NCBI RefSeq assembly: GCF_030689645.1 | Contig: NZ_JAUYFU010000024.1 | Location: forward strand, 56,807-120,806 | Direction of reading: 5' to 3' | Origin: Humidesulfovibrio sp. | GTDB taxonomy: Bacteria > Desulfobacterota > Desulfovibrionia > Desulfovibrionales > Desulfovibrionaceae | Length of the DNA stretch: 64,000 nt | Shown: positions 41,572-56,300 of the stretch, in pieces | Layout of the letters: each line of letters begins with the position of its first letter | Position numbering within the stretch: position 1 is the stretch's first letter | Made by a program: the position numbers and the translations under genes | The notes under the pieces: model-generated | Databases searched by the model: none | Told to the model about the DNA's origin: nothing | The model's input: the letters and a program-made list of their open reading frames with translations, nothing else

Positions 41572-43794
41572 CTAATCCCTTCGACCACTGGGGCCGCTGC
41601 TCCGCAATTTCGTCCGCATCGCCAGCAGGCCCGCCGCGCCACAGAGCAGAGCCGCCGTGAACAGGGTCCAGAACAGGCTTTCGGGGTCGCCGTTGGCTGC
41701 TGCGGCCAGGAGCACCACTGGGGCTAGCGCTCCGCGCACAGCGGCTCGTGCCCACGGGCGTTCGCGTATGGCTTCGGCCACGGGCGGACTCAGGCTGTAG
41801 TACGTCTCCACAAAACCGCGCCCCAGGCTGGACTGCAGAAGCACAGTGTCGCGGAAGCGGCGCAGGGTGGCCACATGCTCGTCCCATGGTTCGCCGTAGG
41901 CCGCGGTTGCGATGAAACAGTCGGCAGGGCTGCCATGGTAGGCCATGCTTTGGGCCAGGCTGCCCTGGCGGATGAGGTAGCCTTTCCAGATCCCGCCGAA
42001 GCTTGAGTCGCGCGCGGAGATGGGGATGGTGTCCAGGTCGCCGGAAAGGTCGCAGGTGAAGTCGTAATAGCCGGTGCCGAAGAGCCCCATGCTGAAGGAC
42101 CAGCGGAAGGTCAGGGTCTTTCCGGTGATCTTGATGTCGGTCACCGTGGCCTGGTTGGCCCCGCCGCCGCTTCCAGCCAGGGTCTCGCCGTTCAGTACAA
42201 AGGTGATGGTGTTGACGAAACCGGTGATGGCCTTGTCCTGCTGTGTCCAGTAAAAGGTGCCTACCAGCCTGCCCTTCAGATCAACCTTGCGCGCCAGTTC
42301 GCGCGCGTACTCGCTCTGCTCGCGCTCCGGGACCAGGGTGCGGTAATCGTCCAAGGCCTTCTTTGCCTGGTCCAGCTCGTTCGTCTTGGCGGCTGCCGTG
42401 GCCATGGCCAGTTGCACCAGGGCCTTGTCCGCGCCTTCCTCCAAGGCCCGGTTGAGCTGGTAGGAACTGTCCGTCTGCCGCCCTTCGATGCCGAGCATCA
42501 AGCCCCGCGCGACGCGTGTTCCCGGCGTGGTGAGACCGGACTCCTCCACACGCCGCACGTGATACTTGGCGTCGGCCTCGCGCCGGGTGAGCAGGTAGGA
42601 GATGGCAAGACCTGCGCGGGCGTCGGCGTCATCGGGGTGCGCCTGCACGGCGTTCTCAAAATATTTCTGGGCCTCGCTGACGCCATCGCGGGCCAGGAGC
42701 GGGAAGTAGGCCGCGTTGGCGGCCCGGGTCGCCTTGGACTGCTGCGCTGTCGGGCTGGTCGGTGCCGGTGGGGGCGGCTGCTTGGGTCGGGCGGCCATGG
42801 CCAACTGCTTGGCCTGGGTCAGCCTTTCGCGCTCGGCCTCCAGACGCTCCTTTTCGGCTTGCAGGGATTGGAGCTGCACCAGTTCCAGCTTTTCGCGCTT
42901 CAGGCGCTCTGCTTCCTCGGCCATGCGCTTCTTCTCAGCCTTGATGTCCAGCGGCTGCGCCACCGGTGCTGGAGCCGGTGCTGATGCCTGCGGCTGGGCG
43001 GTGGCAGGGGCGGCTGGTGGCGGCGCCTGCGCTGCCTGACCCTCACCGGAGAGATAGAAATAGCCGGTAAGCGAGCTGGACTCCCAAGGCACCTGTTTTT
43101 TGCCAGTCTCGGCCACCACGCCCATGCGCACGCGCATGAACACGTCGGTGATGGGCAGACCCGGAGTGCGCATGGTTTGCAGCAGGTGCTTGGTGTAGAT
43201 GCCGTTTTCTCCCGTTCCGTCGCTGGCCACGGAGCCTGGCGCCGTGGCGTAGGCGATGAGCGAGCCCGTGGGTGCGCGCATCTCGGCCAAGCCGCGCTCC
43301 GCGCTGCGGAAGCCTCTGCTGAAGGGATTGTTGCGGCAGGCGTCGAGGATGACGATGTTGAGCGCGTTGCCCGCATCCTCCATCTTGCCCAGCACCCTTC
43401 CAGCGTCCACGCACTCGAAGCGCACGTCGCTCTCGGTCTGGATTTTGGCGTCCACGGGCACGAGGTAGTTGCTGCCCTGCACCTGCAGGCCGTGCCCGGC
43501 GAAGTAGAACAGGCCTACGCCGCCGCCACGCAGATCCATGCCGAACTGGCGGACGGCCTCCTCCATGTCCTTTTGGCCTGCGTCCACCTTGAGGGTCACG
43601 CTGAAGCCCAGGGATTTGAGCAGAGTCGCCATGTCGCGGGCGTCTTTGGCGGGGTTCTTGAGCGGGGCGCTTTTATACGCGCTGTTGCCGATGACCAGGG
43701 CGATTCGTTGTTCACCACCGGCTAGTGCGTGGCGCGAAAGACAGGACAGAGCCAGGATGCAAATCAGCAGTGCGCGGAACACGCGGCATCGCAT
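41572..43794 (-). CDS. Secreted caspase-family (peptidase C14, orthocaspase) multidomain protein
   Basis: 740 aa. Order of regions: signal peptide; caspase domain with His (YFAGHGLQ) and Cys (ILDACRNNPF) dyad; Pro/Ala linker; coiled coil; TPR-like region; beta-rich region; C-terminal CFIATAAYG...RRFRD...YY..SPP motif plus a hydrophobic helix. Confidence 0.88.
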   Translation of the reverse strand: MRCRVFRALLICILALSCLSRHALAGGEQRIALVIGNSAYKSAPLKNPAKDARDMATLLKSLGFSVTLKVDAGQKDMEEAVRQFGMDLRGGGVGLFYFAGHGLQVQGSNYLVPVDAKIQTESDVRFECVDAGRVLGKMEDAGNALNIVILDACRNNPFSRGFRSAERGLAEMRAPTGSLIAYATAPGSVASDGTGENGIYTKHLLQTMRTPGLPITDVFMRVRMGVVAETGKKQVPWESSSLTGYFYLSGEGQAAQAPPPAAPATAQPQASAPAPAPVAQPLDIKAEKKRMAEEAERLKREKLELVQLQSLQAEKERLEAERERLTQAKQLAMAARPKQPPPPAPTSPTAQQSKATRAANAAYFPLLARDGVSEAQKYFENAVQAHPDDADARAGLAISYLLTRREADAKYHVRRVEESGLTTPGTRVARGLMLGIEGRQTDSSYQLNRALEEGADKALVQLAMATAAAKTNELDQAKKALDDYRTLVPEREQSEYARELARKVDLKGRLVGTFYWTQQDKAITGFVNTITFVLNGETLAGSGGGANQATVTDIKITGKTLTFRWSFSMGLFGTGYYDFTCDLSGDLDTIPISARDSSFGGIWKGYLIRQGSLAQSMAYHGSPADCFIATAAYGEPWDEHVATLRRFRDTVLLQSSLGRGFVETYYSLSPPVAEAIRERPWARAAVRGALAPVVLLAAAANGDPESLFWTLFTAALLCGAAGLLAMRTKLRSSGPSGRRD

Positions 43795-43906
43795 GGCAGC
43801 CTCCTGTCTCGAAATACTTATTTTTGAATGTTAGCAAAGCTGCAAGCAAATGCAAGTGTGGATGAGGTCCTTTCGCTCTGTGCAGGGGTTGCGCTCCGTG
43901 CCTTGG

Positions 43907-44362
43907 CTACTGCACGACCCATACGGCGCAGTTGCGCGCGTTGTGAATCAGCTTTGTGGACACGCTGCCGAACAGGAACTCCTCGCCCTTGGTGAGGCCG
44001 CGGCGGCCCACAACCAAGGTGCCGTAGTCGCCCTCCTGTTGTATTTCGAGGATGGTTTGGGCGATGCTGGGCTCCGCGCTGCACAAAACCGTGCGCTCCA
44101 CCACGGCTTCCCCCGGCAGGCCTGCGGCCAGAAGTATGACGCGCGCGTCCTTGAGGAAGTCGAACACGCGGTCATGCTCCAGCCTGCACTGGCTCAGCCA
44201 GGCGTCCTCGCTGTCGAAGCGGTCGCGGCCAGGGGCGCGCTCGATGTAGAGCAGGGTCACGCGGACTCCAGAGGCCGTGCCGAGCAATTCCGCAGTGTAG
44301 TGCACCGCGCGCCGGGCATTGTCCGAAGCGTCCACCGCGATGAGGATGTTCTTGAAGTCCAT
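43907..44362 (-). CDS. Universal stress protein (UspA family)
   Basis: 151 aa from ATG 44362, which follows AGGAGG. MDFKNILIAVDASDNARRAV...LVVGRRGLTKGEEFLFGSVSTKLIHNA... Confidence 0.9.
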   Translation of the reverse strand: MDFKNILIAVDASDNARRAVHYTAELLGTASGVRVTLLYIERAPGRDRFDSEDAWLSQCRLEHDRVFDFLKDARVILLAAGLPGEAVVERTVLCSAEPSIAQTILEIQQEGDYGTLVVGRRGLTKGEEFLFGSVSTKLIHNARNCAVWVVQ

Positions 44363-44387
44363 GGGGCCTCCTTGGGTGTTGTTGGGC

Positions 44388-45368
44388 TCAGGCCCGACGC
44401 AGCAGGGGGATGCAGGGTTCAAGATCGGCCAGGAGTTCCGGCACGGTTTCGTAGTAGACCTCGGACGCGGAGGAATAGTGCATGAGCACCCGGTTCAGTT
44501 CCTCCGGCACATAGGGGAACAGCTTTTTCAGGTTTATGATGCGGTGGCGGAAGAATAGGGCGCAGTCGGCTTCGATGATGTTTGGCGCGTCGGGGTGGGC
44601 CAGGGCGCTGTCCTGTGTCGTGTGCACGCCCATGCCGGTGATGAAGGCCAGAATGTTGCCCAGTCCGAAGAGGTCCAGGCCGAAGGGGTTCTCGGTGGCG
44701 TCGTAACCGTAGTCGAAGTCGATCCAGCAATAGTCGCCGGTCTTGTGGTCCACATAGAGGTGGTCGCGGCGGATGTCTCCGTGGCTTTCCCCATTCTGGT
44801 GCAGAAAGTGGATGGCCCGGCAGGCTTCGATGTAGCGTTCCAGTATGCCGGGGTAGATCTCGTGGAAGTAGGTCCGGTGATCGACATGCAGATCCTCCAC
44901 GTTCAGGTCCAGCCTGCGTCCGGCCACGCGCTCCAGCACCCGCACCAGATTGCCGCGTTCGTCGCGGTGTGTTTGGCCCTGCATGAAGCGTTTGTCGCCC
45001 GCAACCAAGCGCAGGATGCGCGCTTCCTTGGCGGCGCTGCGGTGGCAGGTGATGGTCAGCGGTCCGATGTGCTGGTCGAAGGTCTCCTGAAACTCCAGCT
45101 TCAGAATACGATATTGGCCGCTCTCCATCTCCACGCAGCGTTTGACCCAGAACTTGGGATCCTCCATGCCGAAGCGCCGTTCGCGCTCGTCTCCTAGCAC
45201 AAGGTAGTGGCGGCCGCCCACAAAGATGACGTCTCCGTAGGTAATGCTCATGAACTCGGTCGTGTCGATGAACACGGTGCCGAAGCTTCGCACGCTTACC
45301 GGGGGATTGAAGCGCTCCATGAGGGCGCGCACTGATAAAGAAGCGGGCTTTGGAACTGGTTCGGGCAT
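44388..45368 (-). CDS. Atypical protein-kinase-fold protein (HxDxxxxH catalytic loop, Kdo/WaaP-like)
   Basis: 326 aa. HGDIRRDHLYVD is followed by WIDFDYGY. There is no obvious glycine-rich loop. AGGAGG lies upstream of the ATG. Confidence 0.6.
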   Translation of the reverse strand: MPEPVPKPASLSVRALMERFNPPVSVRSFGTVFIDTTEFMSITYGDVIFVGGRHYLVLGDERERRFGMEDPKFWVKRCVEMESGQYRILKLEFQETFDQHIGPLTITCHRSAAKEARILRLVAGDKRFMQGQTHRDERGNLVRVLERVAGRRLDLNVEDLHVDHRTYFHEIYPGILERYIEACRAIHFLHQNGESHGDIRRDHLYVDHKTGDYCWIDFDYGYDATENPFGLDLFGLGNILAFITGMGVHTTQDSALAHPDAPNIIEADCALFFRHRIINLKKLFPYVPEELNRVLMHYSSASEVYYETVPELLADLEPCIPLLRRA

Positions 45369-45522
45369 GATGCGCCTCCTGGTTCAGCCATAACACAGAT
45401 TAGGCATTTCGCCACGCATGGTCAAGCAATGGGGCTTTTCGAAGCCCTTTTCCAAAAGCGGCGGGCCGCTTCTCCACATAATGCTGGAGAAGCGGCCCGT
45501 ATTGTTTGTGGTTGCTGCTGCG

Positions 45523-47187
45523 CTATTTGCCGAAGGGACACTTGGGGAACACGCAGGTCTTGCAGCCCAGGCAGAAGCCGCCCTCGGCCATCTGCGCCAA
45601 ATCCGCGCGCTTTATCTCCACTCCGGCCAGCACGCGCGGCAGCAGGATGTCGAAGCTGGTGGCCTTGTGGAAGAGCGCGCAGGCTGGCACGCCCATGACC
45701 TGCGCGCTGCCGGCCGGGCAGGCCAAGCGGCCCAGCAGTGTCATGGCGCCGGGCAGGATGGGCGCGCCGTAAAGCATGTCGGTCAGGCCAGCGGCGAGGA
45801 GCCCCTTGCGGGTCACATCGTCCGGGTCCACGGAAAGCCCTGCCGTGGTGACGATGAGGTTTGCCCCTGCGGCGAGCATCTTGCCAACGCTCTGGGCGAT
45901 GCGTTCGGCGTCGTCAGGCACGATGTCCACGGACACCACCTGCGACCCCAGACGCTCCACCTTTTCGCGGATCACCGGCGCGAACTTGTCCTCGATGAGG
46001 CCCTGGAACACCTCGGTGCCTGTCACCAGCACGCCCACGCGCGCGGGTTTTATGGCCGCGATTGTGAACAGCGGGCCGCTCGCCAGAACGGCCTGCGTCT
46101 TGCGGAAGTTCTCGGTGGAGAGATAGAGCGGGATGGCCCGCGCCCCGGCGAACTCCTTGCCCGCTTCAACGAGCACGCCGTGATGGCGGCTGGCCGCCAT
46201 GACATCCGGCACCAGATTGAAGGCCTCCAGGCGCTCGCGGTCCAGCAGCAGCACGCCGGTTGCGGTGGCGCGGAAGTTGATCTTCCCCTCGCGCGGCGTC
46301 TCGTCGTGGGCCACGTTTTCGCCCGCCATGAGCCTGGCGAAGCCAAGCGCGGCCTCGTTCTCATGGAGGTAGCCGTCGGGCGCGTCCTGCTCCAGGTACA
46401 CATGGGCCCGGCCCATGTACTGCAAGCGGCACACGTCCCCGCCGGATATTGCGTGCCCTTTGCTGAATTCCACGCCCTTGCTTTCGCCAGGCACGATGCG
46501 CGTCATGTCATGCAGGGTCTTTTGCCCCACAGCCTCGGAAATAGGGACGGCGGTGAGCTGCGGGCCGGTGTCGACCTGGGGGCTAGCTTCCTCCCGGACC
46601 TGCCCGGGAACGCGGCAGCCCGCCTCGCCGTATGGGGCCTCGCCCTGGCAACCGCGACAGATTGCGCCGTCGCTGGGCGGATAGGCCTCCGTGCAGATGG
46701 GGCAGATGCCCACGCGGCCCATGCTCTTGTGTTTGCGGAAGCGCTCGTCCACCTGCACCGCGGTCATGGAGCAAAGGTTCTCGCCAGCTTCTTCAATTTG
46801 GCGGAACAACCGGTCAGTGTCCTGGTCGGCTTTTTTCTTGAGTTTGAGGAACCACCCGCGTATCTCATCATAGGGTTCCATCTTTTCCACGTCGAGCCAG
46901 ACCCGCACGCCGACGCCTGTGTATTTGTCGTACAGCGACACAGCGTAGCGTCCCAGGTTCAGGACTTTCACCCAGCCGTTGCCCACGGTGCAAGGGGTCA
47001 GGATCTGCACGGCGTCGGGTAGGCATTTGGCCGTTTCCACCACAGCGTCGAAGAGGGTTCCTGTGGGCAGCTGGCGGCGGGCCAGCTCCACCATATACCC
47101 GCCGATGAGCAGGCCAGGGGCGGGGTAGCCGTGAAAGGCCGCAGCCTTGGCCTTGAATTCCTCAAAGGTGTACGGGCCTATGTTCAT
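45523..47187 (-). CDS. FmdE-domain / zinc-ribbon / MoeA-MoCF-binding-domain fusion protein
   Basis: 554 aa. The N-terminus is FmdE-like (FHGYPAPGLLIGGYMV...). The ribbon is CPICTEAYPPSDGAICRGC. The C-terminal half resembles the MoeA/MogA molybdopterin-binding fold (VGVLVTGTEV...IVTTAGLSVDPDD). The Cys-rich tail is CLGCKTCVFPKC. Confidence 0.7.
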   Translation of the reverse strand: MNIGPYTFEEFKAKAAAFHGYPAPGLLIGGYMVELARRQLPTGTLFDAVVETAKCLPDAVQILTPCTVGNGWVKVLNLGRYAVSLYDKYTGVGVRVWLDVEKMEPYDEIRGWFLKLKKKADQDTDRLFRQIEEAGENLCSMTAVQVDERFRKHKSMGRVGICPICTEAYPPSDGAICRGCQGEAPYGEAGCRVPGQVREEASPQVDTGPQLTAVPISEAVGQKTLHDMTRIVPGESKGVEFSKGHAISGGDVCRLQYMGRAHVYLEQDAPDGYLHENEAALGFARLMAGENVAHDETPREGKINFRATATGVLLLDRERLEAFNLVPDVMAASRHHGVLVEAGKEFAGARAIPLYLSTENFRKTQAVLASGPLFTIAAIKPARVGVLVTGTEVFQGLIEDKFAPVIREKVERLGSQVVSVDIVPDDAERIAQSVGKMLAAGANLIVTTAGLSVDPDDVTRKGLLAAGLTDMLYGAPILPGAMTLLGRLACPAGSAQVMGVPACALFHKATSFDILLPRVLAGVEIKRADLAQMAEGGFCLGCKTCVFPKCPFGK

Positions 47188-47239
47188 GTTTTTCCCCGCT
47201 GGATTTAGATAGTTATGCTGGAATTAACATAAGAGTTTC

Positions 47240-47258
47240 ACCCCTATCGCGCAGGGGG
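47240..47258. promoter_or_regulatory. C4/G4 inverted repeat A (candidate CsoR-family operator)
   Basis: ACCCCT atcgcgc AGGGGG, about 50 nt upstream of the FmdE-fusion ATG at 47187. Confidence 0.35.
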
Positions 47259-47307
47259 ATTCGGGTCAACTTTTTTAACGAAAATTGCCGCTGGATGCTT
47301 GACGTAA

Positions 47308-47332
47308 ATACCCCATACCGGTATTGGGGTAT
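47308..47332. promoter_or_regulatory. C4/G4 inverted repeat B (candidate CsoR-family operator) overlapping a putative promoter
   Basis: ATACCCCA taccggtat TGGGGTAT with perfect 8-bp arms. A TTGACG -35-like box at 47299-47304 lies immediately upstream. The repeat is 75 nt upstream of the cytochrome c ATG. Confidence 0.5.
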
Positions 47333-47406
47333 CAACGCTAGTGAAAAGTGCGGCCGCCTGTGGTTTGGCCGCAAATAATGGGAACACAAACCCGGAGGAG
47401 ACGACA

Positions 47407-47724
47407 ATGAAGCGCAGCACCACTCTTTTCGCCGCCCTGATCCTGGCCCTGGCCGCCGTGAGCCTGGCTTTCGCCGCTGAGGGCAACGCCCGCAAGGGCA
47501 AGTACCTGTACCGCCAGAAGTGCCGCTCTTGCCACGGCGTGAGCGCATCCGACCTTTCCCCCAGCTCCAAGACCCAGGCCGAATGGAAGAAGGCCTTCGC
47601 CAAGCCCGAAGCAATCAAGTGCTACAAGGACTGGAAGGGCGTGACCCCGGAGGAGAAGAACGACATCTTCGCCTACCTGCACGACTTCGCCAAGGATTCC
47701 CCGTCTCCGGCCAAGTGCAACTAG
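47407..47724 (+). CDS. Periplasmic monoheme c-type cytochrome
   Basis: ATG 47407 follows GGAGGAG. It has a signal peptide ending ...LAFAAEG and a single CRSCH heme motif, 105 aa in total. Confidence 0.85.
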   Translation: MKRSTTLFAALILALAAVSLAFAAEGNARKGKYLYRQKCRSCHGVSASDLSPSSKTQAEWKKAFAKPEAIKCYKDWKGVTPEEKNDIFAYLHDFAKDSPSPAKCN

Positions 47725-47799
47725 ATCTGCGCAATCAATGACCACGCCCGGCGGGAGCGGCCAGACCAGCTCTTCCGCCGGGCGGCAAGGGGAACACCT

Positions 47800-49995
47800 A
47801 TGAGCAGCAATATTTCCCGCCGCGACTTCCTGCGCCTTGCCGGAATGGCCGCCACCGCCACGGCGGCCACAGCCGCCCAGGCGGCTTTGGCCCCGGAGGC
47901 CAGGGCGGCAGGGGCCGTCACGGCTCCGCAGTGGGAGTCGAAGTTCGGGGCCTGCGATATGTGCTTCAACCGCTGCGGGCTCATCGCCCGGGTTGAGCGC
48001 GGCGTCATCAAGAAGCTCGACCCCAACCCGAAGTTCACCAAGTCGCGCGGCATGCTCTGCGCGCGGGGAAACGCAGGCGTGGATCAGGTCTACGATCCCG
48101 AGCGGATAAAGACCCCCATGCTGCGGGTGGGCAACCGGGGCGAGGGCAAGTGGAAGGCCATAGGCTGGGACGAAGCTCTGGATCTCGCCGCTTCCAAGAT
48201 GAAGGACATCGCCGCCAAGTACACCCGCTGCGGCATGCTTTTCAGCGCCGGGGCCGACACTCAGAGCCAGTTCGTGCACCGCTTCGCCGAGGCTTTCGGC
48301 TCCTACAACATCACCAGTCATGAGTCCCTGTGCCTGCTTTCCGGCAACCGGGCCTTTGTGGATACCTTCGGCGATGTGCCCCTGCCCGACGTGCGAAGCT
48401 CAAAGTACGTCATCCTGGCCGGGGCCAACCGCATGGAGGCCCTGGTGACGCCGGACAGCATGGACCTCATGACCATCATGCGCGAAGGCGCGAAGGTTGT
48501 GGTGCTGGACCCGCGCTACACCAAGAGCGCCGCTCTGGCCTCGGAATGGCACGCCATCAAGCCCGGCACGGACATGGCCTTCATGCTCGCCCTGGCCCAT
48601 GTCATCATTACCGAGAAGCTGTACGACCCGAAGTTCGTGGCTGAGCGCACAAGCGGCCTGGACCAGCTCGCCGCCCACGTGGCGGAGATGACGCCCGCCT
48701 GGGCCGAGGCGGAAACCGGCATCCCGGCTGCGGACATCCTTCGCATGGCACGAGAGCTCGCTGCTGCCGCGCCTGCTGCCATGGTCTACCCAGGCCGCCG
48801 CAGCTCGGACTACGAGAACTCTACCCAGATCCGCCGCAGTTTCGCCATCGTCAACGCGCTCCTGGGCAACTGGGACCGACCGGGCGGACTGGTTCCGGCA
48901 CGCCCGGCGGGCCTCAAGAAGGTGCCCTTTGAGCCGCCGTTCTACGACGACAATCCTCCGGGCCGCGTGGACGCCAAGAGTGTTCCCCTGCTGTTCGACG
49001 ACGAGGGGTCTTTCGTCATTACCCGCGAGAATATCATCAAGGGCGCCCCCTATCCGCTGAAGGGCTGGTTTGTGTATAAGACCAACCCCATGGCCACGGC
49101 GCCGGATCGCAGGAAGACCCGCGAGATGATCGACAAGCTGGAGTTTATGGTGGTGGTGGATATCGCCATGAGCGACACGGCCTGGATGGCCGACCTGGTG
49201 CTGCCGGCGCCTAGCGCTTTGGAACGCCAGGACCCGGTGCAGGCGTTGCAGGCCGGAGCAGAAGGCGCATGCCTGGTCTGGCGCGATCCGGTTATTCCCG
49301 CGTTGCACCAGTCGCGGCCAGTCTTTGAGATTTTGAAGACTCTTTCGGTCAAGCTCGGCTTCCCCGAGGCCTTTGATTTTGACATTCCAAAGTACCGCGA
49401 GATGCAGCTGGCCGCCTTGCCAGAGGCTGCGGAGATCCTGAAGCGCGACGGCGTGTACTATCCACCTAATCCGCCCCTTGGCGGCACGGACGGCCAGCCC
49501 TTCAAGACACCCAGCACGAAGATCGAACTTTACAGCAACCGCTATGCGGACCTGGGTTTGGATCCCCTGCCCGTGTACGCTTCGCCCAAAGCTTCCCCGG
49601 ATGCTGGCCGGAAGTTCCGGCTTGTGGCGGGCCGCAGCGCCTGCGTCACCCAGGCCAGCAGCACCAACAACGCGCTCTTGTCCGAGTTTGAGCCGGAGAA
49701 CACCCTTTGGCTGAACGAGGAGAGCGCCAAGGAGCTTGGGGTGAAGCAGGGCGATGTGGTGCAGGTGGAAAGCCCGGCGGGCAAGGGTGAACTGAAGGCC
49801 CTGGTGACGCCGAAGATCCGCAAGGACACGGTGTATATGCTCTCCGGCTTCGGCACCATCTCCGGGAAGCTTTCGCACACCACGGGCGTGGGGGCCAGCA
49901 TCGTCGAACTCATGGAGAGCCGCTTCGACGCCATCTGCGGAAACTCAGCAATCCACGAGACCTTTGTCAGCGTGAAGAAGAAGGGGGCCGCATGA
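47800..49995 (+). CDS. Molybdopterin oxidoreductase catalytic subunit, thiosulfate/polysulfide reductase-like (PhsA/PsrA type)
   Basis: 731 aa. Tat signal is SRRDFLRLAGMAATATAATAAQAALA. The N-terminal FeS motif is CDMCFNRCG...C. Size and layout fit the PhsA/PsrA branch of the DMSO reductase family. Confidence 0.85.
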   Translation: MSSNISRRDFLRLAGMAATATAATAAQAALAPEARAAGAVTAPQWESKFGACDMCFNRCGLIARVERGVIKKLDPNPKFTKSRGMLCARGNAGVDQVYDPERIKTPMLRVGNRGEGKWKAIGWDEALDLAASKMKDIAAKYTRCGMLFSAGADTQSQFVHRFAEAFGSYNITSHESLCLLSGNRAFVDTFGDVPLPDVRSSKYVILAGANRMEALVTPDSMDLMTIMREGAKVVVLDPRYTKSAALASEWHAIKPGTDMAFMLALAHVIITEKLYDPKFVAERTSGLDQLAAHVAEMTPAWAEAETGIPAADILRMARELAAAAPAAMVYPGRRSSDYENSTQIRRSFAIVNALLGNWDRPGGLVPARPAGLKKVPFEPPFYDDNPPGRVDAKSVPLLFDDEGSFVITRENIIKGAPYPLKGWFVYKTNPMATAPDRRKTREMIDKLEFMVVVDIAMSDTAWMADLVLPAPSALERQDPVQALQAGAEGACLVWRDPVIPALHQSRPVFEILKTLSVKLGFPEAFDFDIPKYREMQLAALPEAAEILKRDGVYYPPNPPLGGTDGQPFKTPSTKIELYSNRYADLGLDPLPVYASPKASPDAGRKFRLVAGRSACVTQASSTNNALLSEFEPENTLWLNEESAKELGVKQGDVVQVESPAGKGELKALVTPKIRKDTVYMLSGFGTISGKLSHTTGVGASIVELMESRFDAICGNSAIHETFVSVKKKGAA

Positions 49996-50774
49996 ACGCG
50001 AAGCTCGCCATGGTCATAGACTCGGCAAAGTGCATCGACTGCAAGGCCTGCGTGGCCGCCTGCAAACAGGCCAACGGCGTGTCGCGCGGGGTGTGGCGCA
50101 ACTGGATCAAGGAGGCCGTGCCGCCCGTTGAGAATGGGAAGCTGGGCCGTGGGCACTTTCAGCCCGGCGCCTGCATGCATTGCGACGAGCCCTCCTGCGT
50201 TATTGCCTGCCCCACCGGAGCAACCTTTAAGGACAAGGCCGACGGTTCGGTGGTCATCGATCCCAAGCTGTGCATCGGCTGCGGCAACTGCATCCCCTCC
50301 TGCCCCTACGGCGCGCGCTTCCGCGACCCGGTGCGGCGCATCGCGGACAAGTGCACCTACTGCCCGGAGCGCCGGGCTGCCGGACTGCCCCCCGCGTGCG
50401 TGGACACCTGCCCCACCAAGGCCCGCGTCTTCGGCGACATCAGCGATCCGAACAGCGATGCCGCCAAGCTGCTTGCAGCCAACCAGGGCAAGGTGGTGCG
50501 CGTCATCGCCAAGCAAAACGACACCAAACCCAACATGTACTACATCGCCAGCACCGCGCCGGACGGCTGGGCGGTGAAGCCGGTGAACCCCTTGAGCTTT
50601 GACGCCCTTTCGCAGGTGGTGGCCCCGCTGGTGAAGTACGCCGTGGGACTCTCGGGCCTGGGCGTGCTGGCCATGCTGGGCCGGCAGCTTTTGGTCGGCC
50701 AGAAGCCGGATGTCGGCACGCCGCACGAAGGCCCGGAAAAGGACAAGAAGGAGGACGGCCATGACGCCCGCTAA
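49992..50774 (+). CDS. 4x[4Fe-4S] electron-transfer subunit with C-terminal membrane helix
   Basis: Four ferredoxin-type Cys clusters (CIDCKACVAAC, CMHCDEPSCVIAC, CIGCGNCIPSC, CTYC...CVDTC). A hydrophobic segment VAPLVKYAVGLSGLGVLAML follows. The start overlaps the upstream stop (ATGA). Confidence 0.88.
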   Translation: MNAKLAMVIDSAKCIDCKACVAACKQANGVSRGVWRNWIKEAVPPVENGKLGRGHFQPGACMHCDEPSCVIACPTGATFKDKADGSVVIDPKLCIGCGNCIPSCPYGARFRDPVRRIADKCTYCPERRAAGLPPACVDTCPTKARVFGDISDPNSDAAKLLAANQGKVVRVIAKQNDTKPNMYYIASTAPDGWAVKPVNPLSFDALSQVVAPLVKYAVGLSGLGVLAMLGRQLLVGQKPDVGTPHEGPEKDKKEDGHDAR

Positions 50775-51480
50775 CAACGAAATCAAGCGCCACGACCCCT
50801 CGGACATCCGCATCCACTGGTTCAACGCGGCCTGCTGGCTGGTGCTCCTGGTCAGCGGTCTGGGGCTCATCAAGAACGACAAGCTGAACCCCCTGGGCGC
50901 TTGGCTGCCCGATGTCCTACGGGCTCTTTTTGGCGGCGGCAGCGCAGGCGGTGCTGTGCTTCTGGTGCTCCACGAGGTGGTCGGGGTGGTCTGGCTGGTG
51001 GGCATCGTCATTTACATGGGCGTCAACGCTGGCGGAACGCGGTTCTTCCTGCGCGAGATCTTCAGCCTGCGCCCCGGCGATTTCACCTGGATGGTCCGCA
51101 AGATGCTGCGCATGACCGTCGGGGGAGGCGGCGAGCTGCCCCCCCAGGGCTACTACAACATGGGCCAGAAGGCCTTTGCCCAGGCGTCCGTCCTGGGGGG
51201 CATAGCCATCGGCGCAACCGGCATGATCCTGCTGGCCTCGGACAAGATTCTGCCCGCCTCTGTCGTGTGGCTTGTGGGCTGGGCCGTGACCCTGCACTAC
51301 TTGGCCGTGGGTCTCGTGTTCGCGGGCCTGCTGGTGCACATTTACATGGCGGCCATCTCGCCGGAGGAGAAGCCCGGCTTCCGCTCCATGTTCACGGGCA
51401 CCGTGCCGCGTGACTACGCCCGCCATCACCACGGCCTCTGGGTGGATGCGCTGGACAAGGGCGAGCCCGGCGCAAAGTGA
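50761..51480 (+). CDS. Dihaem cytochrome b membrane subunit (PhsC/FdnI-like)
   Basis: 239 aa from ATG 50761 with 4-5 TM helices and conserved His residues (IHWFNA, LHEVVG, LHYLAV...LVHIY). Confidence 0.8.
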   Translation: MTPANNEIKRHDPSDIRIHWFNAACWLVLLVSGLGLIKNDKLNPLGAWLPDVLRALFGGGSAGGAVLLVLHEVVGVVWLVGIVIYMGVNAGGTRFFLREIFSLRPGDFTWMVRKMLRMTVGGGGELPPQGYYNMGQKAFAQASVLGGIAIGATGMILLASDKILPASVVWLVGWAVTLHYLAVGLVFAGLLVHIYMAAISPEEKPGFRSMFTGTVPRDYARHHHGLWVDALDKGEPGAK

Positions 51481-51552
51481 TCGGCAATAGCGGGTACGGC
51501 GGGAATCCACCGGCCCGAGAGTCTGCAAACCCTCGAACGTAAGGAGACTGAC

Positions 51553-52653
51553 ATGAGACACGGCAAGCGACTGTTGCAGGTATTTATGCTGGCCCTGCTC
51601 ACCCTGGCCTTCGCGGTCCAGGCCCAGGCCGCCAACCCGGACTATTTCTACAAGAACCTCGTAGACATCAATTACGTGAAGCCCCTGGTCAAGGTGCCGA
51701 ACCCCGAGGGCGTGAAGCTCATCGACTCGCGCCCGTACCAGGGCAAGTACATCCAGGGCTACATCCCCACGGCCATCAGCCTGCCGGACAGCGAGTTCGA
51801 GAAGAAGGCCGCCGAGCTTCTGCCCAAGGACAAGAACGTCACCCTGGTGTTCTACTGCGAAGGCCCGGAGTGCAAGCTTTCCCACAACTCCGCGCGCAAG
51901 GCGGAGAAGCTTGGCTATAAGAACGTGAAGGTTTACCCCGGCGGCTACCCGGAGTGGGTGAAGGCTGGCAACTATCCGGCCATCGGCGTGGAGAACGTGA
52001 AGGAGATGCTGACCAAGGGCGAAACCTTCCTGCTCGTGGATTCCCGTCCGCTGGTGAAGTTCCTTGAGGGCAGCATCCCCTCCGCCGTCAGCATCCCGGA
52101 CTCCGGCTTCGAAAAGAAGACCGGCCTGCTGCCTGTCGACAAGTCCACTCAGCTGGTGTTCTTCTGCGGCGGCTACGAGTGCCCCCTGAGCCACTCCAGC
52201 GCCAGGAAGGCCATGGCCCTCGGTTACTCCAACGTGAAGGTCTGTGAGGCTGGCGAACCTGCCTGGGCCAAGCTGTACGGCGCATCGGGCGGCGGTTTGA
52301 AGGTGCAGACAGGCGGCGTTGAAGGCGCCATCAGCGTGGAGCAGTTCAAGAAGATCCTGGCCGAGAAGCCGGACAGCATCCAACTCATCGACGTGCGCGA
52401 CGCCGACGAGTTCGCTGCGGGCCATTCCCCCAGCGCCGTGAACATCCCGGTGAATGAGCTTGAGAAGAAGCTGCCCGGCATGAAGTTCGACAAGCCCGTG
52501 GTGTTCGTCTGCGCCACCGGCTCCCGCAGCGGCGAGGCCTATTACATGACTCGCGACCTGCGCAAGGATGTGAAGGACGTGTTCTACCTTGAGGCCACCA
52601 CCAAGTGGTCCAAGGACGGCACCTGCACCATCACCGACAACAAGAAGAAGTAG
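51553..52653 (+). CDS. Periplasmic protein with three rhodanese-like domains
   Basis: Signal peptide is ...LAFAVQAQAA. Three repeats have loops CEGPECKLS, CGGYECPLS and CATGSRSGE. Confidence 0.85.
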   Translation: MRHGKRLLQVFMLALLTLAFAVQAQAANPDYFYKNLVDINYVKPLVKVPNPEGVKLIDSRPYQGKYIQGYIPTAISLPDSEFEKKAAELLPKDKNVTLVFYCEGPECKLSHNSARKAEKLGYKNVKVYPGGYPEWVKAGNYPAIGVENVKEMLTKGETFLLVDSRPLVKFLEGSIPSAVSIPDSGFEKKTGLLPVDKSTQLVFFCGGYECPLSHSSARKAMALGYSNVKVCEAGEPAWAKLYGASGGGLKVQTGGVEGAISVEQFKKILAEKPDSIQLIDVRDADEFAAGHSPSAVNIPVNELEKKLPGMKFDKPVVFVCATGSRSGEAYYMTRDLRKDVKDVFYLEATTKWSKDGTCTITDNKKK

Positions 52654-52663
52654 CCGAAATGCC

Positions 52664-52693
52664 GCGGGTCGGGGGCGAATGTCTCCGGCCCGC
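52664..52693 (+). terminator. Hairpin after the rhodanese gene (weak terminator candidate)
   Basis: gcgggtcgg (52664-52672) pairs with ccggcccgc (52685-52693), 9 bp including one G-U pair. The U-run begins only 14 nt later. Confidence 0.35.
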
Positions 52694-52886
52694 GTGTCCT
52701 GACTGATTTTCGACGGCGGATTTCATGCCCTGCCTAACGGGTATTTCCGATTGAAGTTGTCGGGAATTTCGGGTAGCAAAAAAGCCCTGTGCAGCTTTGG
52801 GCGTTTGGCCCGCTTGCGGAGGCTTTTCTTGCCAAGTTCTGGTTTCAATGACATGCCGATTTCTGGCGGTGGCCTTTGCACCCCGG

Positions 52887-52907
52887 ATACCCCGTGCCGG
52901 CAGGGGG
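52887..52907. promoter_or_regulatory. C4/G4 inverted repeat C (candidate autoregulatory operator, degenerate right arm)
   Basis: ATACCCC gtgccggca GGGGG, about 85 nt upstream of the regulator ATG at 52991. Confidence 0.3.
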
Positions 52908-52910
52908 CGT

Positions 52911-52932
52911 GTTGCGCTGGCGTTGCGCTGGC
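52911..52932 (+). repeat. Tandem 11-nt duplication
   Basis: gttgcgctggc gttgcgctggc, read directly. It lies immediately after inverted repeat C. Confidence 0.9.
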
Positions 52933-52990
52933 GGGGCAGCCGGACAGGAATTCTGGCGGGTCTTTTGTACAAGCATCTCAGGAGGCGGTC

Positions 52991-53278
52991 ATGGCCAAGG
53001 AAGTGAAGGATCAGGAAGCCCTCAAGAAAGACGTCATGGCCCGCATGAAGCGCATTGAGGGGCAGGTGCGCGGCATTCAGCGCATGATCGACGAGGGCAA
53101 GGAGTGCGAGGACATTCTGGTGCAGGTGCGGGCGGTGCGTTCGGCCCTGCGGTCTGCCACCACCCAGATCATGCGCCGCTATCTGCTGCGTTGCAACGAG
53201 CAGGCCGCCCAGAGCGGCGATCCCAACGCCCAGTACGAGAAGCTCATGAAGCTCGTGTCGAATTTCATCGACGGTTAA
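52991..53278 (+). CDS. CsoR/RcnR-family (DUF156) repressor with x-C-x-C fingerprint (CstR-like)
   Basis: ATG 52991 follows GGAGG, giving 95 aa. Core is RIEGQVRGIQRMIDEGKECEDILVQVRAVRSAL...RYLLRC. It has Cys39 and Cys68, and Tyr64 where CsoR has the Cu-ligand His. Confidence 0.8.
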   Translation: MAKEVKDQEALKKDVMARMKRIEGQVRGIQRMIDEGKECEDILVQVRAVRSALRSATTQIMRRYLLRCNEQAAQSGDPNAQYEKLMKLVSNFIDG

Positions 53279-53381
53279 TTTTGCCCGCCTGACACCTTGC
53301 CCGGCCATGCGCTTCCGCTCTCCAGGGCTGGCGGCGCTGACTTGCAGCTTTTCAATCCCCTGAGGTTTAGGCTTCCGCCGC

Positions 53382-56300
53382 TTAGGCCTTCGCGTCGTTT
53401 TCGGCGCGTTGCGCTTTGCCGCGTCCCATGGCGCTCGAAATCTTATGCTGCAGCTTGTCCAGGTACACATAGTACACAGGCGTGAAGTACAGCGTCAAAA
53501 GCTGCGAAACCAGAAGCCCGCCCACCACCGCCAGGCCCAGGGGCCTGCGCGCCTCCGCGCCTGCGCCGAAGCCCAGGGCGATGGGCAGGGTGCCCATGAG
53601 CGCCGCCATGGTGGTCATCATGATGGGCCGGAAGCGCACCAGCGCACCCTCGAAGATTGCCGTAGCCCCGTCTTTGCCCTGCACGCGCTGGGCCTCCAGG
53701 GCGAAGTCGATCATCATGATGGCGTTCTTCTTCACGATGCCGATGAGCATGATGATTCCGACAAAGCCATACAGGTTCAAGTCCAGCTGGAAGATCATGA
53801 GGGTGAGCAGTGCGCCCGCGCCAGCCGAGGGAAGGCCCGAAAGAATCGTCAGCGGGTGGATGAAGCTCTCGTAGAGGATTCCCAGCACGATGTAGATGAC
53901 CACGATGGACACGATAAGGAGCAGCCACAATCCCTTGAATGAGGATTGGAAGGCTTGCGCCGTGCCCTGGAAGGTGGTGCTGAAGGTGGCGGGCAGAACC
54001 TCCCGCGCAACGGCCTGAACCTTGTCCACGGCTTCGCCCAAGGACACGCCGGGGCGCAGGTTGAAGGAGATGGTCACCGAGGGCAGCTGCCCCGAGTGGT
54101 TCACGGCCATGGGGCCGACGCTTACCTCGCGCTTCACCAGGGTGGAGAAGGGGACGAGCTTCCCGCCGGTGGCGCGCACGTACAGCATGTCCAGAGCCGA
54201 GGGGTCGCGCTGGAAGCGCGGCTCAAGCTCCATGAGCACCTTGTACGAGTTGTTGGCCGCGAAGATGGTGGACACCTCGCGCGGGCCGTAGGCGATGCCG
54301 AGGGCGTCCTCGATCTGCATGGCCGTGAGGCCCAGGGCCGAGGCCTTGTCGCGGTCAATGGCAAGATTCAGCTGCGGGTTCTTGAGTTGCAGGTCGCTGT
54401 TCACGTCCTGCAGCTCCGGCAGCTCGCGCAGGCGGGCTTCAAGAGCCTGGGAGCGCTGGAACAGGTCCGCTGTGTTGGGGCTTTGCAGGGTGAACTGGTA
54501 CAGAGCCTTGGTGTAGCTGGCGCCAAGGTTGATGGGCGGCGGATTCTGCAGAAAGGTCTTGATGCCCACGACGCTCGCGAGCTTCTTGCGCAGGCTTTGC
54601 AGCACCTCGTCGGCGCTCATGTCGCGCGCGTGGCGGGGCTTCAGGCGGATGAGCAGGCGGCCTGAGTTGCCTGCCGGGTTGGGTCCGCCCGCGCCCACCA
54701 GGGACATGAAGCCCTCCACGTTGGGGTCTGCCGCGATGATGTCGGCCACGCGGTTCTGGTGCTCCAGCATGTACTCGATGGAAATGCCCTGTTCGGCCTC
54801 GGTGACGCCCACCAGTTGGCCGATGTCCTCGCTGGGGATGAACCCCTTGGGGATGTATACGAACAGGAAGCCTGTGAGCAGCAGCAGCAGCAGCGAAAAG
54901 CCCAGGGTCAGGCGGCGGTGGACCATGGTCCAGGTGAGGGTGGTGCGGTAGAGGTCGAGCATGGCCTGGAAGGCGCGCTCTGTTGCGTTGTAGAACTTCC
55001 CGTGGGCCTCCTTGGCCGCGTGGGCGCCCTGCTTAAGCATCAGGCTCGCCAGCATGGGCGTGAGCGACAGGGAAACGAAGCCGGAGATGAGGATGGCCGT
55101 CATGATGGTGACGGCGAATTCGTTGAACAGCCGCCCCACGACGCCGCCCATGAACAGCACCGGGATGAACACTGCGGCCAGTGAGATGGTCATGGACACG
55201 ATGGTGAAGCCGATTTCGCCGGAGCCCTTGAGGGCCGCCTCGCGCGGGGCCATTCCGGCCTCGGTGTGGCGCACGATGTTTTCCAGCACCACGATGGCGT
55301 CGTCCACCACGAAGCCCACGGCCAGGGTGAGGGCCATGAGCGAAATGTTGTCCAGATTGAACTTGAGCTGGAGCATGACGGCAAAGGTGCCGATGACGCT
55401 CATGGGCAGGGCCAGGCTTGGGATGAACGTGGCGGAAAGGTTGCGTAGAAACAGGAAGATGACCAGCACCACCAGCACCACGGTGAGCACCAGGGTGAAC
55501 TTCACGTCATCCACGCTTTCGCGGATGGATTCCGAACGGTCGATGAGGGTGTCGACCTGCACCGAGGCGGGCAGCTGGCTCACGTAGCCGGGCAAAGCCT
55601 TCTTGATGGCGTCCACCACGCCCACTGTGTTTGTGCCGGGCTGGCGCTGCACGGCGAGCACCATGGCTGGAATCTTGTTGAACCGGTTGAAGCGCTTGTT
55701 GTTCTCGGCAGAATCGATGGCCGTGCCGATGTCGGAGATGCGCACGGGCGAGCCGTTCCGCCAGGCCACAATGAGCGGCAGGTAGGACTTGGAGTCCTTG
55801 AGCTGGCCGCTGGCCTCCACCGTATACTCACGCGTGGGGCCGGCCATGGTGCCGGTGGCGATGTTCGAGTTGCCCTTGCGCACGGCCTCAGCCACCTCGT
55901 CCACGCCGATGTCGCGGGCCGAGAGCTGCTCTGGGTTCAGCTGTACGCGCACGGCGTACTTCTGCTGGCCGTAGATCATCACCTGGGCCACGCCGCTGAT
56001 CATGGAGATGCGCTGGGCCAGCAGGGTCTCGGCGTACTCGTTCACCTGATACAGCGGCAGGGTGGGCGAGGACACAGCCAGGTACAGTATGGGCTGGTCC
56101 GCAGGATTCACTTTGCGCAGCACTGGCGGGGTGGGCAGGTCTGAAGGCAGGTTGCGCTGGGCCGCGGCGATGGCCGCCTGCACGTCCTGGGCTGCGGCGT
56201 CGATGTTGCGGTCCAGGCTGAACTGGAGCGTGATGCGCGTGTTGCCCAGCGTGTTGGTGGAGGTCATGGAGTCGATGCCCGCGATGTTGGAGAATTCCTT

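Follow-up and report, generated by a model that had tools for sequence, protein, structure and literature searches.

The persulfide-responsive repressor CstR, described in Staphylococcus aureus, Enterococcus faecalis, Streptococcus pneumoniae, and S. mitis, shares with the regulator considered here the Pfam family PF02583, the x-C-x-C fingerprint without the Cu-ligand His, the loss of the Tyr35-equivalent residue, the ATACCC-N4-GGGGTAT type of operator, and rhodanese genes among the targets. However, its Y position is occupied by Asn, where Tyr is found here, and its targets form a cytoplasmic detoxification set (persulfide dioxygenase, SQR, CoA-persulfide reductase, and TauE), whereas the putative target here is a periplasmic, quinone-linked respiratory reductase in a Gram-negative sulfate reducer. 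By its published description TTHA1953 of Thermus thermophilus HB8 is also a CsoR-like repressor with Cys39 and Cys68, which is insensitive to metals, loses DNA binding on cysteine oxidation, and controls dissimilatory sulfur enzymes acting in the periplasm (Sox), and its genomic sites fit ATACC-N7-GGTA as read from the published oligonucleotides (PMC10318464). It differs in serving sulfur oxidation and not reduction, in having targets unlinked to the regulator, and in a REPSA consensus without the C4/G4 tract.

The best sequence matches of the regulator are the Cu(I)-sensing CsoR proteins (Geobacillus thermodenitrificans 4M1P, Streptomyces lividans 4ADZ, and M. tuberculosis 2HH7), which match it in length and helices, have both cysteines, and share its operator architecture; unlike them, it carries Tyr64, Glu38, and Lys84 at the equivalents of His61, Tyr35, and Glu81 and has no copA/copZ context. 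The Gram-negative persulfide sensors SqrR and BigR (ArsR family) and FisR follow the logic proposed below, a cysteine-pair repressor released by sulfane sulfur, but they come from unrelated families, and their targets are genes of sulfide oxidation or detoxification. Among the enzymes, Salmonella PhsABC and Wolinella/Thermus Psr have subunits (catalytic, FeS, and membrane) that belong to one enzyme family with those encoded here, with a cytochrome b anchor of the FdnI/PhsC type in Salmonella PhsC and a periplasmic rhodanese partner (Sud) of Psr; the present operon differs by an extra monohaem cytochrome c, a three-domain rhodanese, and a catalytic subunit scoring under the PhsA equivalog cutoff. 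To our knowledge the PhsABC and Psr systems are not regulated by a CsoR-family protein.

The regulator and the genes around it

The features of the window, which is the whole 64-kb stretch of DNA analysed, are collected in Table 1. The regulator gene, with AGGAGG ahead of its start codon, is translated to MAKEV...FIDG and matched PF02583 with E=1.6e-25 and 89.7 bits against a cutoff of 22.8 (Pfam), in agreement with the original prediction of a 95-aa CsoR-family protein. The predicted Cys39, Tyr64, Cys68, and Ala at residue 2 were read in the translation, and in phmmer alignments to solved structures (4m1p, 4adz, 5fmn, and 7mq1) the stretch RRYLLRC lies, in an ungapped alignment, opposite ERHANHC in Geobacillus CsoR (4m1p) and TENLTEC in CstR (7mq1). 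Tyr64 thus stands where CsoR has its Cu(I)-ligand His, at the Y position, and none of the 120 closest homologs (55–97% identity) deviates at C39, Y64, or C68. The Cu second-shell positions are Glu38 and Lys84 in the phmmer alignment, so that all three residues with a role in Cu allostery of M. tuberculosis CsoR (Tyr35, His61, and Glu81; PMC8643695) are replaced; the generic relatives collected as a by-product are unlike the regulator in that 71 of 85 have the Y-C-H-C fingerprint. By sequence comparison the regulator is placed outside the characterised CstR cluster with solved structure, and its phmmer scores (63.6 bits to Cu-CsoR versus 46.4 bits to CstR, 7mq1) suggest that its His was probably lost independently of CstR, while Tyr in place of the Asn of characterised CstRs means that the chemistry may differ. 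C-Y-C proteins also occur in Chloroflexi, where they are fused to an OsmC peroxidase-like domain.

The predicted cytochrome c, Phs/Psr-type reductase, triple-rhodanese, and FmdE-fusion genes were all recovered by profile and structure matches. The cytochrome c gene is the first one in all related operons. Among solved structures, the catalytic subunit is closest to Thermus PsrA (2vpw; 390 bits, E=1e-115, full length), while its NCBIfam PhsA score of 528 bits is under the cutoff of 694, so the substrate of the reductase is not fixed; the matches of the 4Fe-4S subunit to NrfC, TtrB, and DsrO models are all below cutoff. Each rhodanese domain has its active-site Cys loop in the translation (CEGPECK, CGGYECP, and CATGSRS), and orthologs of the protein are widespread in Desulfovibrionales. 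The hairpin behind it, in a region alignable in relatives, was not called by the terminator scan; it may mark where the operon transcript ends, in which case the regulator would be transcribed separately. An RND efflux pump adjoins the regulator in Humidesulfovibrio; it is convergent and missing from the cluster in other genera, and a TetR-family gene stands beside it in three related loci (L081–L083). No copA or copZ was found in any locus examined.

Table 1. Coordinates of the features in the window
Feature	Position	Strand	Description
FmdE / zinc-finger / MoCF-biosynthesis fusion gene	45523–47187	-	Pfam; conserved cluster neighbour
Inferred sigma-70-type operon promoter	47299–47327	+	-35 TTGACG 47299–47304; 17-nt spacer; -10 TATTGG 47322–47327
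Candidate operator O1, ATACCCCATACCGGTAT	47308–47324		17 bp; ATACC-N7-GGTAT pseudo-palindrome
Monohaem cytochrome c, first operon gene	47407–47724	+	PF13442; CRSCH motif and signal peptide in translation
Mo-bisPGD catalytic subunit, PhsA/PsrA type	47800–49995	+	Tat signal SRRDFLRLAG
4Fe-4S electron-transfer subunit, PhsB/PsrB-like	49992–50774	+	PF13247 (Fer4_11), other Fer4-type 4Fe-4S families
Membrane cytochrome b anchor, FdnI/PhsC type	50710–51480	+	PF01292 E=1.3e-22; formate dehydrogenase gamma model 75 bits
Secreted triple-rhodanese protein	51553–52653	+	PF00581 in three stretches; signal peptide in translation
GC-rich hairpin	52662–52694	+	Directly 3' of rhodanese stop codon; 10-nt arms, 90% complementary
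Repeat C, ATACCCCGTGCCGGCAGGGGG	52887–52907		Variant palindrome TACCCCnTGCnnGCAnGGGG; 84 nt upstream of regulator ATG
CsoR-family repressor gene	52991–53278	+	95 aa; PF02583; fingerprint x-C39-Y64-C68 (W-X-Y-Z)

Operator candidates and their conservation

The inverted repeats A, B, and C of the original prediction are all present in the window sequence where it had located them. The pattern ACCCC-N7-13-GGGG has four matches in the window (three distinct sites, repeat B being counted on both strands) against 6.8 expected, which is not above chance, so that the repeats can be validated by conservation only; this was found for the O1 part of repeat B in 11 lineages and for repeat C in six, but for repeat A in no relative compared. 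Of repeat B, which had been proposed as an operator with 8-bp arms, the left two-thirds, O1, were confirmed: the conserved unit is ATACCCCnTAnnGGTAT and not the outer arms, since the window-specific extension to 47332 (TGGGGTAT) is found again in some close relatives only. The canonical ATACC-N7-GGTAT layout of O1 also removes the earlier concern about a spacer of 9–11 nt, longer than in other CsoR operators.

O1 has a single exact match in the window, and its 12 positions nTACCCCnTAnnGGTAn are invariant, with one exception at position 10, over 12 sites from 10 lineages, to which an exact-match site in Maridesulfovibrio adds the eleventh; the background at one mismatch or less is about 8 matches per 346 kb. 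All related loci that include the region ahead of the cytochrome c gene have the operator there (11 lineages, at least six genera), with regulator identities of 57–96% across these lineages, which supports the predicted family-type operator at the operon promoter. Moreover, the S. mitis cst operator core, for which binding was shown by experiment (PMC8643695), matches O1 in reverse complement at 15 of 17 positions, and ATACC-N7-GGTAT also precedes at least 19 unrelated csoR-like genes by no more than 150 nt. By its layout O1 is of the family-standard operator type and a candidate binding site of the regulator. In related sites the promoter-proximal O1 begins 3 nt past TTGAC[AG], except in D. 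africanus, where the site precedes the gene by 247 nt and no TTGAC box adjoins it; in the window it begins 3 nt after the -35 box, fills the spacer of the inferred promoter, overlaps the inferred -10 box, and is about 100 nt before the cytochrome c ATG. The layout TTGACA-N17-TATATT/TATATG is also present in loci L084, L123, and L125, while a strict promoter scan gave no call at 47299–47327 because the last base of the -10 box is not T.

Repeat C is conserved as TACCCCnTGCnnGCAnGGGG, 56–104 nt upstream of the regulator, and is degenerate or absent in relatives outside the six lineages. The pattern ACCCC.TG[CG].GG[CG]A gave six matches in 1.87 Mb (window and all loci, both strands), which are all regulator-proximal and on the regulator strand (window, L098, L100, L107, L108, and L109), with no other occurrence in this sequence; probably, it represents a putative autoregulatory operator. 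The predicted control of the divergent FmdE-fusion gene through the unconserved repeat A was not sustained, since in relatives O1 goes with the operon cassette and not with the FmdE side, and the region upstream of the fusion gene has its own conserved elements and no operator. In Maridesulfovibrio salexigens the FmdE fusion gene also adjoins the regulator.

Regulator, operon, and operator are found together in Humidesulfovibrio, Salidesulfovibrio, Pseudodesulfovibrio, Maridesulfovibrio, Desulfocurvibacter, and MAG lineages, and the regulator-operon linkage was recovered from both ends, by the regulator search and by the rhodanese search, in at least six genera; further rhodanese/thioredoxin-like genes accompany the operon in other genera. 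The operon is an indel, and many close relatives have the regulator without it. Because the regulator is intact in these relatives, the operon is not its sole purpose, and as the regulator, with repeat C in three of them, outlasts operon loss, the regulon probably exceeds this operon.

Proposed regulation and competing explanations

The explanation that we consider probable, with some reservation, is a CsoR-type repressor which acts with its cysteine pair at O1, the operon being induced by reactive sulfur and not by metal. Repression of the operon by the regulator is well supported by the sequence comparisons, while sulfane sulfur or persulfide is inferred as the effector from the lost Cu-sensing residues, the analogy with CstR, and the sulfur-handling neighbours. 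The metal site would be swapped for a plain Cys39/Cys68 pair with Tyr64 in place of the Cu-ligand His, and, judging from the position of O1, the reduced regulator would sit there and block RNA polymerase at the promoter predicted to drive the cytochrome c, the periplasmic PhsABC/Psr-type molybdoenzyme, and the secreted triple rhodanese. By the precedents of CstR and TTHA1953, processing of thiosulfate, polysulfide, or elemental sulfur would raise cytoplasmic sulfane sulfur carried as persulfides or polysulfides; a di-, tri-, or tetrasulfide would then bridge Cys39 of one subunit and Cys68' of its neighbour, and the bridged regulator would leave the DNA, inducing the operon, while repeat C would probably provide autoregulation. 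Several points count against this explanation: sulfate reducers have much sulfide in their cytoplasm to begin with, so that the specificity of a persulfide signal is not easily explained, the regulator scores higher against Cu-CsoRs than against CstR and has Tyr in place of the CstR Asn, relatives without the operon have an intact regulator, and the -10 box TATTGG is weak. Also, TTHA1953, which is alone among CsoR-like regulators of dissimilatory sulfur genes in having been characterised, gave no response to NaHS in vitro (PMC10318464).

A clearly less probable explanation, which deserves consideration nevertheless, retains the same repressor and O1 but lets the cysteine pair report another thiol-reactive signal, such as general disulfide or oxidative stress, tetrathionate or sulfite, or selenite/tellurite, and the reductase would then be a relative of PhsA/PsrA reducing selenite or other oxyanions. 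It draws on the selenotrisulfides which CstR forms with selenite, on Srr, the respiratory selenite reductase of Bacillus selenitireducens, which is a Psr/Phs relative with rhodanese partners, on the PhsA score under the NCBIfam cutoff, and on the OsmC peroxidase-like fusion of the Chloroflexi C-Y-C proteins. In addition, DNA binding of TTHA1953 with its Cys39/Cys68 is lost with H2O2 or Cu(II) and not with NaHS (PMC10318464), and both tetrathionate and persulfide release SpCstR (PMC8643695). Nevertheless, the catalytic subunit is structurally closest to Thermus polysulfide reductase over its full length, the membrane anchor is a cytochrome b like FdnI and PhsC, the three secreted rhodanese domains and the rhodanese/thioredoxin-like genes elsewhere point to sulfane-sulfur transfer, and induction of an anaerobic respiratory operon by oxidative stress would make little physiological sense.

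It is improbable that the regulator is still a sensor of Cu(I) or another thiophilic metal bound on its two cysteines, with the operon or the RND pump as a metal-related target: although Cu(I)-CsoRs are the closest solved relatives, CstR also binds Cu(I), if unproductively (PMC8643695), and the pump adjoins the regulator in Humidesulfovibrio, other residues stand in place of the His ligand and of both second-shell residues across the whole clade, the loci examined lack copA and copZ, the convergent pump is missing from the cluster in other genera and in three related loci has a TetR-family gene beside it, and the operator is at the reductase operon promoter and not at the pump. Still a little less credible, and already disfavoured, is an incidental adjacency, in which the palindromes would be GC-rich repeats arisen by chance or sites of another factor, and all targets of the regulator would be unlinked to it. 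The raw C4...G4 count at chance level, the unconserved repeat A, and the many relatives with the regulator alone would agree with it, but the 17-bp O1 is of the family's own operator type (PMC8643695), keeps a constant distance to the -35 box and, with one exception, its 12 invariant positions in 10 lineages, and the regulator-operon pair is recovered in at least six genera from either starting gene.

As the original prediction had presumed, the literature search found no published description of a CstR-type sensor wired to such a sulfur-respiration operon. The sulfur-responsive repressor favoured above would give the CstR idea a new form, with Tyr at the Y position and a Gram-negative host, which is wired to respiration and not to detoxification.

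Candidate sensing residues and family position of the regulator

The regulator matches the CsoR/RcnR (DUF156, PF02583) profile with 89.7 bits against a cutoff of 22.8 over residues 12-89, and it was aligned along its full length to five solved family members. The original prediction described a CsoR-family protein with Cys39, Tyr64, Cys68 and Ala2 and an x-C-x-C variant of the W-X-Y-Z sensing fingerprint, which both the profile and the alignments bear out. In gap-free phmmer alignments Tyr64 occupies the Y position, which precedes the second Cys by four residues; there it pairs with the His that ligates Cu in Geobacillus CsoR and with Asn in CstR 7mq1, and no His or other metal ligand is present. 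In the same way Glu38 stands at the second-shell Tyr position and Lys84 at the helix 3 Glu position of Cu sensors (Tyr35 and Glu81 in the Mtb protein); the second-shell Tyr and Glu are energetically linked to Cu(I)-driven allostery (PMC8643695). The alignments show all three Cu-allostery residues to be lost from the regulator. The remaining pattern is of the CstR type, with both Cys conserved and no metal ligand at W and Y.

In the 120 homologs closest to the regulator (55-97% identity, most of them from Desulfovibrionaceae) Cys39 is invariant and Cys68 is retained in all but one, which has Ser, while the N-terminus is variable; Tyr occupies the Y position in 121/121 clade sequences. The regulator scores higher against Cu-CsoRs (63.6 and 53.5 bits) than against the cluster-10 CstR 7mq1 (46.4 bits). 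A contig scan with the clade alignment provided a control set for both fingerprint and operator comparisons, with at least 79 generic CsoR loci and one close relative among the matches listed; within these matches 71 of 85 generic CsoR genes were Y-C-H-C. Of the best 150 cluster representatives at 50% identity nearest to the regulator, 54 were C-Y-C (about a third) and 67 were Y-C-H-C. The top dozen or so were nearly all C-Y-C, and none of the C-Y-C proteins among the 150 was tied to a named CstR. Because of this fingerprint distribution and the higher scores against Cu-CsoRs than against CstR, the regulator is read as a putative member of a two-Cys branch of Tyr type that stands apart from the characterised Asn-type CstRs.

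C-Y-C proteins were also seen in Chloroflexi. In an Anaerolineales MAG (L067, 9932-10777) one 281-aa ORF joins a C-Y-C CsoR-family domain to an OsmC-like peroxidase domain, and in two further loci (L046 and L063) the C-Y-C CsoR-family matches are limited to residues 12-68. No sulfur context was seen for these Chloroflexi proteins.

Gene order, linkage and loss of the operon

The region 45523-53278 comprises a divergent gene, an operon of five genes and the regulator, with a gap of 337 nt between the rhodanese gene and the regulator and a convergent RND pump downstream of the latter. The catalytic subunit gives a full-length match of 390 bits to the Thermus polysulfide reductase PsrA, and its 528 bits against the PhsA model lie below the equivalog cutoff of 694, so that thiosulfate and polysulfide are candidate substrates. 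A search of 44000-54000 against Rfam gave no match, which implies that no known riboswitch or leader is present there.

Genes and sequence elements of the region (positions in the window)
Feature	Position	Strand
Caspase-like (Peptidase_C14)/TPR protein (740 aa), universal stress protein and 326-aa protein without Pfam match	41572-45368	
FmdE / zinc-finger / MoCF fusion gene	45523-47187	minus
Palindrome TTATGCTGGAATTAACATAA (TTATG-N10-CATAA)	47213-47232	
Repeat A	47240-47258	
GGTCAACTTTTTT	47264-47276	
Repeat B	47308-47332	
17-bp candidate operator within repeat B	47308-47324	
G4 tract after the 17-bp site	47325-47332	
Secreted monohaem cytochrome c	47407-47724	plus
Mo-bisPGD subunit, Tat-exported	47800-49995	plus
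4Fe-4S subunit	49992-50774	plus
Cytochrome b anchor	50710-51480	plus
Secreted protein with three rhodanese domains	51553-52653	plus
Inverted repeat ATTTCCGATTGAAGTTGTCGGGAAT	52743-52767	
CTTGCCAAG	52827-52835	
Repeat C	52887-52907	
PF02583 regulator, 95 aa	52991-53278	plus

The regulator adjoins this operon in Humidesulfovibrio-like contigs, Salidesulfovibrio brasiliensis, Pseudodesulfovibrio profundus, Maridesulfovibrio salexigens, Desulfocurvibacter africanus and two further lineages. Clusters from the other genera have, as a rule, two additional genes, for a second rhodanese/thioredoxin-like protein and a TorD-like chaperone. In members of the Desulfomicrobiaceae and Desulfolutivibrio the regulator was unlinked to any such operon. 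Directly downstream of the regulator, Salidesulfovibrio, Pseudodesulfovibrio and Maridesulfovibrio encode a small EF-hand-like protein (83-86 aa, faint matches; L084 8325-8576, L089 8331-8591, L125 13145-13405) that is absent from the window.

Within Humidesulfovibrio the operon behaves as an indel. In H. mexicanus and many metagenome contigs the FmdE fusion is followed directly by the regulator, even where the regulator is 97% identical to that of the window. The operon together with its promoter and operator (about 47279-52700) is missing from eleven otherwise syntenic loci (L081-L083, L090, L091, L096, L097, L099, L101, L103, L106), and homology to the window stops at about 47278 and restarts upstream of the regulator; this break indicates that the variable cassette includes both promoter and operator. 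In L107-L109 the FmdE fusion is missing too. The stretch from the universal stress protein gene to the RND pump is a hot spot for indels; the universal stress protein and the 326-aa protein still adjoin the regulator in L107 and L109. An intact regulator in genomes devoid of the operon implies further targets. Among the rhodanese homologs listed, most of them nameless entries, none was named as an H. mexicanus protein.

Candidate operator sites in the intergenic regions

Three C4/G4 inverted repeats had been put forward as operators of the regulator, and all were located where the original prediction placed them. The count of such repeats in the window (ACCCC-N7-13-GGGG) is at chance level, so their significance was judged by conservation, using related loci obtained by regulator look-ups, a metagenome scan and rhodanese look-ups. 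By this measure the 17-bp unit of repeat B is conserved, repeat C is conserved in six lineages, and repeat A is not conserved.

In the window ATACCCCATACCGGTAT lies between the -35 and -10 elements of the operon promoter, and ATACCCCnTAnnGGTAT is found upstream of the cytochrome c gene in every related locus holding that region. At nTACCCCnTAnnGGTAn there is no variation among twelve sites from ten lineages, apart from a single deviation at position 10, and an exact match in Maridesulfovibrio salexigens adds an eleventh lineage. In these lineages, D. africanus excepted, the promoter-proximal site begins exactly 3 nt past TTGAC[AG]; 17 nt past the -35 box the window has TATTGG, and the other genera with a recognisable -10 have TATATT, TATATG or TATTGT. 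Because of these fixed distances the putative operator fills the -35/-10 spacer and overlaps the -10, which is a classic position for steric repression. Desulfocurvibacter africanus has its site 247 nt upstream of the gene, and no TTGAC box adjoins it. The operon promoter was inferred from cross-species conservation, and a strict sigma-70 scan of 47100-53400 found nothing.

ATACC-N7-GGTAT occurs exactly once in the 64-kb window, the background at one mismatch or fewer being about 8 matches in 346 kb, and at least 19 unrelated csoR-like genes have an exact copy 10-150 nt upstream. To judge from these occurrences this layout is the CsoR family's own operator type. The S. mitis cst operator ATACCCTTATGGGGTAT, used in binding assays, is identical to the reverse complement of the window site at 15/17 positions (PMC8643695), and the genomic sites of Thermus TTHA1953, by reading of the published oligos, fit ATACC-N7-GGTA(T).

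Repeat B holds a conserved 17-bp site, and its outer 8-bp arms are not conserved beyond some close relatives; L001, L105 and all other genera lack these arms, which were rejected as a general recognition unit. The earlier caution about an unusually long spacer (9-11 nt) arose because the C4 tract had been matched to a further, window-specific G4 tract; it lapses with the N7 layout. The G4 tract that follows the 17-bp site keeps equal spacing in the window, L093 and L102 and is absent from the operators of other genera; the six repeat-C sites all end in G4 as well, with spacing one base shorter (CCCC-N10/11-GGGG). Such a tract may offer a second tetramer an extended contact. Operator-like 17-mers with one mismatch were also noted within the PhsA-like gene of two genera (L084 1887-1903, L125 6651-6667), about 430-440 nt into the coding sequence, with no counterpart in the window, and are probably a coding-sequence coincidence.

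Repeat C, proposed as a site near the regulator gene, has two mismatches at otherwise invariant operator positions and defines a conserved palindrome of its own, TACCCCnTGCnnGCAnGGGG. Window and loci, 1.87 Mb in all, contain this pattern six times, in 6/6 cases 56-104 nt upstream of the regulator and on its strand, and in 3/6 in lineages without an adjacent operon. It is degenerate or absent in several relatives, and Pseudodesulfovibrio profundus carries instead the canonical ATACCCTGCGAGGGTAC 82 nt upstream of the regulator. Repeat C, confined to such positions, is probably an autoregulatory site.

Two more elements upstream of the regulator, the inverted repeat ATTTCCGATTGAAGTTGTCGGGAAT and CTTGCCAAG followed by a conserved (A/G)(A/G)TG, are kept even in operon-less loci. 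Neither fits a sigma-70 or sigma-54 promoter, a sigma-54 reading of CTTGCCAAG being rejected by eye on its wrong spacing.

Control of the divergent FmdE fusion through repeat A did not hold up. The repeat mismatches the consensus at 5/10 scored flank positions (ATACC/GGTAT), stands outside the variable cassette, on its FmdE side, and is conserved in no relative compared, and it was rejected as an operator, not being alignable in L001, L093, L100, L102 and L105. In the window only, it falls within the spacer of the fusion gene's putative TTGACC promoter on the minus strand. The box belongs to GGTCAACTTTTTT, which recurs with minor variation in 5/6 aligned related loci and in operon-less loci carrying the fusion; its minus-strand reading yields a TTGACC -35-like element, and since relatives have TATTAA or TATGAA 17 nt later, this region is likely the FmdE-fusion promoter. 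The palindrome TTATGCTGGAATTAACATAA, 26-45 nt upstream of the fusion ATG, is conserved in L093, L100, L102, L091 and H. mexicanus (L082); another regulator of this Mo/W-related gene may bind there. The fusion again neighbours the cluster in M. salexigens, which suggests a functional link with the molybdoenzyme; control through repeat A is not implied.

Proposed signal and significance

The comparison shows regulator, operon and candidate operator to be co-conserved, with a predicted family-type operator inside the operon promoter, and pure coincidence of the regulator lying beside the operon is unlikely. We infer with good support that the regulator represses the operon. Sulfane-sulfur bridging of Cys39 and Cys68' would release it, by analogy with the CstR persulfide sensors (PMC8643695) and with TTHA1953, which is metal-insensitive, is released by oxidation and represses sox genes (PMC10318464). 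The genes under the operator, a triple rhodanese and a Phs/Psr-type reductase, are of kinds predicted to handle sulfane sulfur. The main rival keeps the same architecture, the signal being oxidation of thiols in general, tetrathionate or sulfite, or selenite; this rival is supported by the lack of a TTHA1953 response to NaHS (PMC10318464), by the OsmC fusion in Chloroflexi C-Y-C proteins and by the sub-equivalog score of the reductase.

Metal sensing is unlikely, for all the closeness of the regulator to Cu-CsoRs in score. No copA/copZ was found in the window at 43-57 kb or in the related loci inspected. Nor does the protein match FrmR or RcnR/InrS: Pro2 of the FrmR pattern (P-C-H-x) is replaced by Ala2, the N-terminal His and the His at Y of RcnR/InrS (H-C-H-H / H-C-H-C) are both absent, and the scores against the NCBIfam FrmR and RcnR models are far under their cutoffs.

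CsoR-family persulfide sensors are known chiefly from Gram-positive hosts, in which they target detoxification genes (PMC8643695, PMC13467558). The 2021 family survey placed persulfide sensing in three clusters of its SSN, with characterised CstRs in clusters 3, 4 and 10, all characterised or named members Gram-positive and clusters 6-9 uncharacterised (PMC8643695), and a 2026 review likewise finds CstRs mainly in Gram-positive bacteria (PMC13467558). The gene set of known cst operons differs from the rhodanese and Phs/Psr-type operon of the window. No account of a regulator of the CsoR/CstR type acting on a Phs/Psr operon, or present in sulfate reducers, came up in full-text literature searches, in agreement with the original prediction. 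The protein family, the type of operator and the likely chemistry are known ground; the sensing-site residue, the bacterial group and the wiring to respiration rather than detoxification are new.

Tentatively, and with somewhat less than even confidence, we propose that Tyr-type x-C-Y-C proteins form a large uncharacterised CsoR branch of thiol-based sulfur/redox sensors, one Desulfovibrionales clade of which serves as a substrate-responsive switch for periplasmic thiosulfate/polysulfide respiration, probably with further unlinked targets. The finding is a useful lead for reactive-sulfur sensing and sulfate-reducer physiology rather than a categorical surprise, and it points to a large Tyr-type two-Cys CsoR branch without assigned function. 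The conserved triplet of repressor, operator and operon, with its 17-bp site and two candidate sensing Cys, offers a testable handle on thiosulfate/polysulfide reduction in Desulfovibrionales. If the proposal is true, a cytoplasmic sulfane-sulfur sensor would govern an energy-conserving pathway in organisms whose cytoplasm is filled with sulfide.
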